Below, in pieces: positions 9,001 through 12,000 of a DNA stretch of 64,000 bases. Position 1 is the first letter of the stretch; every line of letters starts with the position of its first letter. Source of the DNA: Lingula anatina (lineage: Eukaryota; Animalia; Brachiopoda); assembly GCA_051362555.1 (NCBI GenBank), contig CM120646.1:14942001-15006000 (forward strand), read 5' to 3'. The notes beneath the pieces are model-generated. The model ran no database searches, was not told the origin of the DNA, and saw only the letters and a list, made by a program, of their open reading frames with translations. The position numbers were made by a program, and so were the translations under genes.

Positions 9001-12000
9001 AAAATTGCCCCATAAAATTAATATAATTGCGGTTTATCTGTCACTATAATCACTACATTTACCTTCATAGCATTGAGTATTTCATTGGTAACTTTCAATC
9101 TTTGGCCTTTCTGTGCCATTCGGCGAGCCTAAGAATAAATCAATGTTGTTAATATTGAGTTTTCAAGCACTTTAACACACTCAGTGATATGATGACCAGA
9201 AACAAGATGATTGAGGGTAAAATAAGGTGAATCTTACCTGACCTGAAGAATGTAATTACCTCTTTAACTCTTTGTTTATAAAGACATACTGATCATTCCC
9301 AACATATACAAATCATGGAAAGTGATCAAATTGGGTACGGATTGCCAAAAATACATGGCACTAAAAAATGCATTGCACCACATAGGAATACCATAAAACC
9401 ATGGCATGAGGAATAACATCAAGTTACAATGATAACCAAACCATTCTTATTCAACAGTATAAAAAGAAAAGGGCAAACCTATGTTTGAAGAATGAACTCA
9501 TGTTTATGCAATATGCGGTAAAATAAACAAGAGATGAAGTCTGGGCAGTGGTTTACATGGCATCCAGCTTACTTGTTGCTTTTTCATTTGTGATCCAGCG
9601 TAGGCGTTGGCCGGCAGAATAAGTACGATAACTGCGATACCAGCCAGAGTGGAAGGACCTAAATATTGCCAAAGCAGCACCAGTGCCACGATGATGGACA
9701 AAGTGGACGACCAAGTAAGGTGAAAGAAAAGGAAACAGTCCTGCATCTTCTGCGCGTCCCCCGACATTAAATTGACAATTTCTCCGACCGTCGACTTCTT
9801 CCTAGCAGCGCTGGTTAACTTCAGTGACTAGAAGATACGGAAAACTGCAGTATTGCAAATGATTCAGTTGCCAGACCACAAACAATATTAACAAATAAAT
9901 GATACAAATTACTGTTTTTCTTTTTATCAAGAGCTTGTAAAATATGTGGGTATTACCTCCAATATTTCTGTGACTGTCAGTCACCATCATCAGGGAGTAA
10001 ATGACTAGGGTCATTTCACCTGGAATGAAAATCCAGGTCAATTGCCCCTAATCACTGGCCTTGTGTTGTAACTGTTACTTGCTCCCCCCGGGGCTCCTCT
10101 GCATCGCTCTGGAGCACCGTGAGGTAGATAGCTGGTAAATCATACCCCCCCTGTCTGTTCAGGTCTGGTTGTTTGGTCCTGATGTGTACAGCTTCTGCTA
10201 TTTTTCTTTGGAATGTCCAGTTTTCCCTGTCTATCACTTTCAGGCTGTCAAAGTCTATGTGGTGACCTGGATGTTTGCAGGTATGTTCTCCAAGGGCTGA
10301 TTTCCAGTTGTTTTTGGCCACTGAGTCTTTGTGTTCTTTCATTCTTGTGGCTAATGGTCTTCCTGTCTCGCCAATGTATTCTCCTTGGCAGGTTCCACAT
10401 TTGACTGAATATATCACACCACATTGCTCTCCTTGGGTTAGAGGATCCTTGGGCTTCACTAGTGCTTGTCTCAGCGTCCAACCTGGCTTATGGTGGAGTT
10501 TGATGTTATATTTTTTATAAACCCGGCTTAGTTTTTCTGACAGACCTTGGCAGTATGGTAACACTATACTTTGCTTTGCACCCTCAATGAGGCCCATTGC
10601 ATCTTTTTCTTTGTCATGTCTGTTCTTGCCTCTTTTTTCCCCTTGTTTTAGTGCCCATTTTGGATATCCACATGCTCTTTTTCAATCTTCTTCCTTTCTG
10701 TTTGTTTGTCTTCTGTATCGGATATCACGGTCTCACATCGGTGGAAAAGTGAAGCTGGCCACTAAGTTTTTGCGAGGTTGGATGATGAGACGACCACTGT
10801 AAGTAGTGATCTGTGTTCGTGGCTTTCCTGTGATTAGGGGCAATTGACCTGGATTTTCATTCCAGGTGAAATGACCCTAGTCATTTACTCCCTGATGATG
10901 GTGACTGACAGTCACAGAAATATTGGAGGTAATACCCACATATTTTACAAGCTCTTGATAAAAAGAAAACAGTAATTTGAATTTATACATACAGAGCTAA
11001 TGAAACTGTTCTCTCAAATAAATGATATATTTTATATGAAATTACTCCAAAATGCATACAGATAGCAGGTCATATTAACCTTTTCTACTGAGAATGCCTG
11101 TGGTAGTTTTCAGTTGGGAACCCTATTCACACACTGATACATGTATACCATTTATAAACTATTTCCCAAATACGTTAGAATTAGCTGGGCCTTCATTTGC
11201 CAAATACTTTAATACCATATATAGTTTGGCACAACACACCTTCCTATAGACAGTTGCTATAATGGCTGTGCGTATCCTCAATCCAACTCTGTAGCACACG
11301 CTGTAGTATCTCTCATAGAGGATGGAATGAAGCATGCTGAAGAGGAACATAACCAAGGCCAGCAGGTACCCGCGCCATGTGAGCGGGTCACCACTCTCTA
11401 CGAAAGTAATCATCAGACTGAAACAAACAAAAAAACAAACAAACAAAAAATACAATATATGGTACTTATTCATAAGCCGACACACACATACACACACGCA
11501 CACACACACACTTCTTTCAAAGCAAAATATACTGTTTAATATCTTAATAAAATGGGGAAAAGTGACCCGAAGCAAAGAATCGCAAAGGCCACTTTATATC
11601 CAAAGTTATCCCACGCAGTGGAATGTCAGGGGATGTGCCCTCTGTCCACGCCAGAACTGTTCTTTATAACCATTTAAATGATAGCAGTACATTTGAGATC
11701 ATGAAATGTTACAAGTACCAGTTTCGATATTCACTGCCTTTGATTTCTAATACCTTAACAAAATAGGGTTGACGAATGTGACAGCATCAAGGGATAGTCT
11801 CAATAGCCCGCCAAGTGCGTAATAAGGCCCAAAAGTGCGCACTAGAGCCCTCAATAAGCGAGGTTTTCCAAGTACGGGTGGATTCGCTGACTCAATTACA
11901 ACATTGTCTGTTCGGGTCATCTGGGCAGAATGGTTTTGGCTGTCATCAGGATGATTGCTCGGACAATCACTGGGAATGCCTACGTACTTGTGACTTGCAT

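Follow-up and report, generated by a model that had tools for sequence, protein, structure and literature searches.

In the window, the 64,000-nucleotide stretch of Lingula anatina DNA analysed here, the hammerhead motif at positions 9953 to 10000 on the minus strand is carried by a terminal repeat of a Penelope-like element (PLE), truncated at its 5' end, that sits in an intron of an ABCC gene. On the host strand, an inverted arm carrying a mirror copy of the motif precedes the arm that holds the motif itself, and any single transcript contains only one sense copy. In the pre-mRNA, the motif is very probably locked in a predicted duplex of about 150 bp, where it would remain uncut and be spliced out with the intron as a passenger. 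This masking is modelled by equilibrium folding of naked RNA, and the duplex could come apart through the action of proteins, local hairpins or editing. The insertion mechanism itself would then supply the antisense strand expected to silence a sense-strand intronic ribozyme, and regulation of the host gene need not follow from the presence of such a motif. Papers are cited below by PMC number for the portions of their text that were available.

Re-reading of the minus strand bore out the letters, strand and coordinates of the initial annotation. The motif is a minimal type I hammerhead with a 4-bp proximal stem I, extended by 3 bp past a bulge, a 6-bp stem II, and the core CUGANGA ... GAAA ... 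UH with C3-G8. Alignment to a covariance model of its relatives places a single unpaired U after A9, and helix III consists of the palindromic AUAU only. By hammerhead numbering on the minus strand, C3 is 9993, G12 is 9968 and U17 is 9961; the predicted scissile bond, which follows U17, was therefore correctly placed at 9961/9960, and it lies 133 nt from the intron end. The core had been described as complete. Its letters are indeed intact; however, stem II is closed non-canonically, either by G10.1 opposite A11.1 or by a U-A pair with a bulged G. Likewise, the single motif that was reported is present, but an identical plus-strand copy at 10885 to 10932, in the same intron, had been overlooked.

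These two copies are the only matches to a minimal-hammerhead descriptor in the 64-kb window, and shuffled 64-kb sequences gave 0.007 to 0.033 matches each (150 shuffles); the motif is not a product of chance. A covariance model built from 18 relatives, with the window excluded, scored the motif at 31.8 bits (E = 7.3e-6, the next match having an E value of 0.26) and also recovered the mirror copy. The initial annotation had proposed a search with Rfam models or a descriptor. The descriptor found both copies, but Rfam gave no hammerhead: there was no match in the whole window at the gathering threshold, and at E ≤ 10 over positions 9000 to 11500 there were two chance matches to other models. 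The fold energy of the motif by itself is unremarkable (z = -1.36).

The insertion as a whole spans 1,110 bp (9905 to 11014) and is bounded by a perfect, AT-rich, 13-bp target-site duplication (9892 to 9904 and 11015 to 11027, plus strand), a 13-mer found only twice in the window. Its 3' pseudo-LTR (pLTR; 9905 to 10058, minus strand) is sense in the host pre-mRNA and matches an inverted 5' pLTR (10827 to 10979, plus strand), which is antisense in the pre-mRNA and is made ahead of the ribozyme; between the two arms there is a single mismatch, at the edge, and a single indel of 1 nt within an A run. A 35-nt PLE tail (10980 to 11014, plus strand) is present at the inverted arm only and aligns with the pLTR continuation of one relative, L035. 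A 5'-truncated open reading frame (ORF; 10052 to 10830, minus strand) encodes the end of the reverse transcriptase (RT) thumb and a GIY-YIG endonuclease, with two frameshifts near 10760 and 10680. Its stop codon at 10052 to 10054 precedes the 3' pLTR repeat, and the hammerhead, about 60 nt past this stop and repeated in the inverted arm, is thereby confirmed as lying in the pLTR. No other match to the insertion was found anywhere in the window, and RNA reads from other family copies depart from the window sequence at 9905/9906 and at 11013 to 11022, in agreement with the insertion edges.

The ORF fragment corresponds to residues 262 to 523 of P0001, a 523-residue RT and endonuclease protein that carries the RT domain PF00078, with 99% identity across the last 209 residues. 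Like those of the ABCC paralogs, the named matches of the element's protein come from Lingula anatina. Its Pfam GIY-YIG match is weak (E = 0.029; score 15.1 against a cut-off of 22.6), and the CxxC and His residues of a GIY-YIG endonuclease with a CCHH motif, as in endonuclease-bearing (EN+) PLEs, are visible in the translation. The EN+ layout is also present, with inverted pLTRs, a tail of the 30- to 40-bp class and a target-site duplication. The translations contain no CX2-5CxxC zinc finger in the linker that joins RT to endonuclease, the feature by which the available text of PMC8557442 sets apart the Penelope/Poseidon type; we provisionally assign the element to that type on the basis of these linker features. 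The perfect duplication, the near-identical arms and the 99% identity to a longer copy suggest that the insertion is recent. Inverted pLTRs with a tail and a target-site duplication are described as a typical PLE layout (PMC8557442, PMC3846280), and paired minimal hammerheads on opposite strands, 100 to 700 bp apart, have been described as "dual min-HHRs" (PMC4209133). By comparison with these accounts, as far as they extend, the insertion is an ordinary, well-preserved one. Such an arrangement probably arose when the element's GIY-YIG endonuclease nicked AT-rich DNA and its RT was primed there, which would have left pLTRs joined head to head and the tail. The earlier assignment to the minimal type I hammerheads of PLE pLTRs, a class that acts as dimers, is supported by the element protein, the descriptor, the relatives' model and the available text of PMC4209133. 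Non-LTR retrozymes are non-coding tandem monomers with a hammerhead in each (bioRxiv 10.64898/2026.07.22.740005); we rejected such an identity, since the two copies here lie in opposite orientations on either side of a coding fragment and do not form a tandem. A long hairpin (10006 to 10056, minus strand) also occurs in the pLTR, in its 5' half, immediately ahead of the hammerhead.

The host is an MRP1-like ABCC gene on the minus strand, referred to here as copy A. The intron of 1,412 nt (9828 to 11239) begins with GT at 11239 and ends with AG at 9828, so that the next exon does start at 9827 as annotated. The upstream exon (11240 to 11419, the 5' edge being approximate) ends in phase 0, and the downstream exon (9573 to 9827) has an open frame. 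Without the insertion and one copy of the duplicated site, the intron would measure 289 nt; the three paralogous introns measure about 360 to 430 nt, and all of them are without the element.

RNA polymerase II moves through the intron towards lower coordinates and therefore finishes the antisense arm about 770 nt ahead of the ribozyme. When the intron was folded from 11238 to 9828 (1 base short of the intron start), the core nucleotides C3, G5, G8, G12, A13, U17 and G1.1 paired with the upstream arm at a probability of 0.999 to 1.0, and the probability of stems I and II was 0.0. The predicted duplex of about 150 bp encloses the whole hammerhead core, and its energy is -265 kcal/mol compared with -45 and -36 kcal/mol for the arms singly. 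At seven nascent 3' ends, sense-arm pairing ranged from 56 of 59 nt up to 140 of 143 nt. We envision that the antisense arm, having been transcribed first, would capture the sense arm upon its emergence, that stems I and II could not form while the arms were paired, and that the duplex would likely be a substrate for ADAR.

Outside the duplex, the motif also appears to be poorly equipped. The bare 49-mer formed stem I with a probability of 0.75 to 0.84 and stem II with a probability of about 0.97; in five flanked contexts from which the arm had been removed, however, the probability of stem I was 0.007 to 0.54 and a competing hairpin mostly dominated. This is the hairpin that the initial annotation had predicted, and its probability varied from 0.28 to 0.96 with the pair and the context. 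The AUAU duplex has an energy of +1.6 kcal/mol, and two co-folded motifs formed intermolecular stem II pairing and no stem III dimer, although the program cannot represent a double hammerhead. We rejected a cis-dimer of the two arms, since any single transcript contains one of them as antisense; with the hammerheads on opposite strands, the ABCC transcript offers no second sense copy for a dimer. Even if it were unmasked, a lone motif could not close stem III; a second sense copy would be required, and probably the protein of the element as well.

RNA reads were taken from four of nine raw runs (X12, X15, X16 and X18), amounting to about 41 million records, or 6 to 25% of each run. Within the examined stretch (8900 to 12400) they cover the element only, and the ABCC copy A exons have zero depth in all four runs, a value that says nothing about silencing given that there is no paralog control, tissue or genotype to set it against. 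The flanks of the reads and their differences from the window indicate that they stem from other copies of the family; none can be placed at this locus, and the reads showed neither normal splicing of the intron nor its hairpin. The reads span 9960/9961, and the listed read ends do not pile up at this bond; in fragmented libraries this amounts to a weak test. Places with A>G or T>C differences outnumbered those with C>T or G>A in X15 (36:9, p = 0.002) and X16 (36:11, p = 0.006), and no significant excess of this kind was seen in the other two runs (23:12 in X12, p = 0.23; 24:37 in X18). Differences of the A>G/T>C type are strand-specific at 9944, 9952, 9955, 9971 and 10914, and A>G clusters occur in the loose ends of reads. 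The pLTR transcripts of the family look A-to-I edited, as expected of arm pairing in vivo, a pattern that alleles of other copies can mimic where there is no DNA of the same animal for comparison. The transcribed copies have differing inversion junctions (joints at 9953/10831, 10070/10879 and others), some of them near the hammerhead edges.

Relatives of the element were collected at 80 loci, of which 23 contained a match to a relaxed descriptor, mostly just after or before the ORF; many of the others end before the pLTR. The aligned set comprised 18 motifs from these 23 loci. We left out L020 (a duplicate of L018), L015 and L019 (weak matches with a long spacer), L027 (within RT coding sequence and likely false), L011 (incomplete) and one of two L047 matches; the splice donor comparison given below was also made without L028 (incomplete). 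The 10.1-11.1 pair is standard in all 18 aligned relatives (10 G-C, 6 G-U and 2 A-U), a figure that is partly circular by selection, and in 20 of 21 relative matches. An AUAU palindrome is found in 4 of the 21 matches and U17 in 8. Short A/U palindromes are thus normal in the class, and AUAU alone does not make a motif dead. Covariation among the relatives gave 83% of cells paired, a value reached in 0 of 500 shuffles and partly circular because the rows were chosen by a descriptor that demands those stems; stem I is misaligned in the four rows that have 6-nt palindromes. The U3-A8 form of the core covariation occurs in three relatives (L035:1042, L034:1120 and L011:2522). Despite a protein identity of only 49%, the window element has the 3' half of its motif and its tail region in common with L035. 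On the minus strand, opposite the ORF, L047:1825 holds a more canonical hammerhead with no extra base after A9, an 8-nt palindrome and a 6-bp stem I.

The initial annotation proposed that the hammerhead would sever the ABCC pre-mRNA and could modulate its expression or splicing. Cleavage of copy A at 9961/9960, by the motif alone or by a dimer formed in trans, with lowered expression or altered splicing as the outcome, would draw on the intact core nucleotides, the sense orientation close to the intron end and the stems formed by the isolated 49-mer, and the absence of exon reads fits low expression, subject to the missing paralog control and genotype. Against it stand the preceding antisense arm, predicted to pair fully and at every nascent length, the single sense copy, the drop in stem I probability in flanked contexts that lack the arm, the G.A closure where the aligned relatives have a pair, and the lack of ends at 9960/9961 in the four runs. 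The chemistry of the class is no more favourable in the published passages available: PLE minimal hammerhead monomers did not cleave and their dimers cleaved at a low rate (PMC4209133), and the Poseidon hammerhead cleaved only with the protein of the element and left no ends in RNA-seq (PMC11167929). Nor would cleavage readily change splicing, as introns cut by a hammerhead in vivo are reported to be spliced nonetheless and only the fast hepatitis delta virus ribozyme blocked splicing (PMC2995048). The masking fold, the weak chemistry of the class, the G.A closure and the lack of ends together make control of ABCC by cleavage highly improbable.

A different explanation operates at the level of the family, namely that this hammerhead variant is catalytically dead or nearly so and has been kept because it overlaps the pLTR promoter, the start codon and the splice donor. 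We regard this as a credible reading that falls somewhat short of probable. It is favoured by the G.A at 10.1/11.1, where relatives have a standard pair. Closure by G.A or U-A would be expected to slow a hammerhead, as would an AUU triplet. At a depth of about 240 in X18, the 40 read differences with the best support, which rank above 101 others, do not include position 9969, and the A there therefore seems to be the family state. The passage of reads through the cleavage site points in the same direction, as does the report, in the text available, that hammerhead mutants did not impair Poseidon insertion in vitro (PMC11167929). On the other hand, every core letter has been kept, the family is young and evidently mobile, and the alternative U-A closure with a bulged G has a parallel in the bulged helix II described for Drosophila virilis (PMC4209133). 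The same source, in its available text, calls the G10.1-C11.1 pair highly conserved in PLE minimal hammerheads. This R-Y pair, which is outside the published descriptor, is missing here, which weakens a claim of activity and not one of descent: judged by its sequence, the motif belongs to the class by descent but lacks one conserved, activity-linked feature. Our literature search found no rate data for a 10.1-11.1 change or for an AUU triplet. To probe how much degeneracy PLE hammerheads tolerate, the variant closed by G.A offers a construct ready for use.

A 5' splice-site motif (9951 to 9959, minus strand) overlaps the 3' strand of stem I, and its cut, 9957/9956, falls 4 nt 3' of the cleavage site. 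On a matrix built from 55 rough host donors it scores 7.1, compared with 7.0 for the real donor of the intron, and higher than 24 of the 55 host donors. Four loose read ends in X12 lie at 9957 and five at the mirror position 10928, and eight molecules in X15 start at 9957; since their continuations match nothing in the examined stretch, they do not lead into a host exon. It probably marks where a 5' intron belonging to the element begins. In 7 of 20 relatives, versus 7 of 144 control windows, a donor-like site occurs within 12 nt past the cleavage site; within 25 nt of it, the counts are 15 of 17 relatives and 10 of 94 controls, and for this second comparison the window, pattern and rows had been chosen post hoc. 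Introns at the 5' end and promoters in the pLTR have been described for PLEs (PMC2377424, PMC8557442), and in D. virilis, spliced and unspliced RNAs are described as carrying different hammerheads (PMC4209133). Our literature search, which covered supplements in part and had Lunse et al. 2017 outside its scope, turned up neither a paper that describes a donor shortly 3' of a hammerhead cleavage site nor one on Penelope hammerheads in Lingula.

It is conceivable, although unlikely, that the insertion affects ABCC copy A without catalysis, through editing or small-RNA silencing drawn by the hairpin, or through splicing into the exon at 9827, either from a sense pLTR that serves as promoter and first exon or from a cryptic donor. 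The donor scores like a host donor and seems to be used in family transcripts, a 3' pLTR promoter is able to drive downstream host exons (PMC2377424), and antisense small RNAs on Penelope families are reported (PMC3846280), each according to the available text. However, no read in the four runs joins 9957 to 9827, where the host exon has zero depth, and in the pre-mRNA the donor lies within the same duplex as the ribozyme, a duplex that stops about 77 nt short of the acceptor and does not extend over the 3' splice region. Translation from the ATG codons of the pLTR would enter the host exon in the wrong frame (phase 1 versus phase 0), and an in-frame pLTR-ABCC fusion was rejected on that ground.

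With a donor located on the 3' strand of stem I or immediately behind it, binding of U1, splicing and self-cleavage would compete, and hammerhead and element-intron donor might form one coupled switch in this PLE branch, between an mRNA for translation and an intron-retaining template. The donor-like sites of the relatives and the read ends at 9957 speak for such a switch. We nevertheless consider it doubtful, as masking by the intron is not consistent in the folds and the locus yielded no transcript of this kind. The more specific idea that the element's intron masks the ribozyme until it is spliced found little support: the stem I probability is 0.85 versus 0.65 here and about 0 in both states in most of 17 relatives, and L035 behaves in the opposite way. 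If a coupled switch did exist, a sense pLTR in an intron would bring along a promoter, an exon and a donor, a cassette from which splicing to exons of the host could take place, and a functional overlap of donor and ribozyme would bear on what the PLE hammerhead is for and on why PLEs keep introns.

In the available text of Cervera and De la Pena 2014 (PMC4209133), PLE minimal hammerheads share with the present motif the pLTR site, a short helix I, a long helix II, the extra nucleotide after A9, a palindromic 15.2-16.2 and opposite-strand copies a few hundred base pairs apart; unlike them, the window motif has A at 11.1, and so the usual G10.1-C11.1 pair is missing. The D. virilis intron of that paper ends at the 5' side of helix I, whereas the donor here starts 4 nt 3' of the cleavage site. 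The inverted-pLTR EN+ PLEs of the Penelope/Poseidon type, as portrayed in parts of PMC8557442 and PMC3846280, are likewise 5'-truncated, with an adjacent inverted pLTR, a tail of 30 to 40 bp at one end, a target-site duplication, a C-terminal GIY-YIG domain and a linker with no zinc finger; in the rotifer examples, however, the duplication is 8 to 10 bp, compared with 13 bp here. PAc, the Poseidon element of Anolis carolinensis (Frangieh et al. 2024, PMC11167929, in its available text), resembles the window element in having stems I and II only, an ATG that starts stem II, an AT-rich target and a tail from two priming sites, but its protein-assisted cleavage has been shown biochemically, whereas the window copy is truncated, frameshifted and known from sequence alone.

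The motif does not behave as a host-exapted regulatory intronic ribozyme, since it is absent from the three paralogous introns and the probability of its fold in the whole intron is 0.0. The amniote ultraconserved intronic ribozymes and CPEB3 are old and conserved, and they fold as monomers. The likeness to them, as far as the available text of PMC6765202 goes, is that a self-cleaving-type motif lies on the sense strand of a host intron; the window motif differs in being recent, in lacking counterparts in the paralogous introns and in lying inside a perfect inverted repeat.

The window (1 to 64000) contains four tandem MRP1-like ABCC genes on the minus strand, about 16 to 18.7 kb apart. Copies B, C and D find matches of about 90 to 100% per exon among named Lingula proteins, and for the copy A exon tested, none of 16 protein matches was at this level or at 100%. 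By eye, no stop codon was found inside the exon matches of copy A, and a pseudogene reading was not supported. One exon region (13590 to 13744, 29289 to 29443 and 47746 to 47914) is 98 to 99% identical in copies A, B and C, and its neighbours are 70 to 90% identical, possibly reflecting recent gene conversion. Similarity also spans introns between 17045 to 17675 and 35767 to 36381 and between 18469 to 19953 and 37089 to 38666 (3' exons after 18,000 and 37,000), and the named ABCC proteins change their best-matching copy along their length, so that paralog identity is a patchwork. The database model P0126, which corresponds to copy B, has two exons tandemly repeated (residues 81 to 191 and 192 to 302) where the window has the exon once; the repeat may be an assembly artefact or an allelic duplication. 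An intron of copy B contains degenerate tandem repeats at 30280 to 31247 and at 31646 to 32048, with a unit of about 160 bp in the second.
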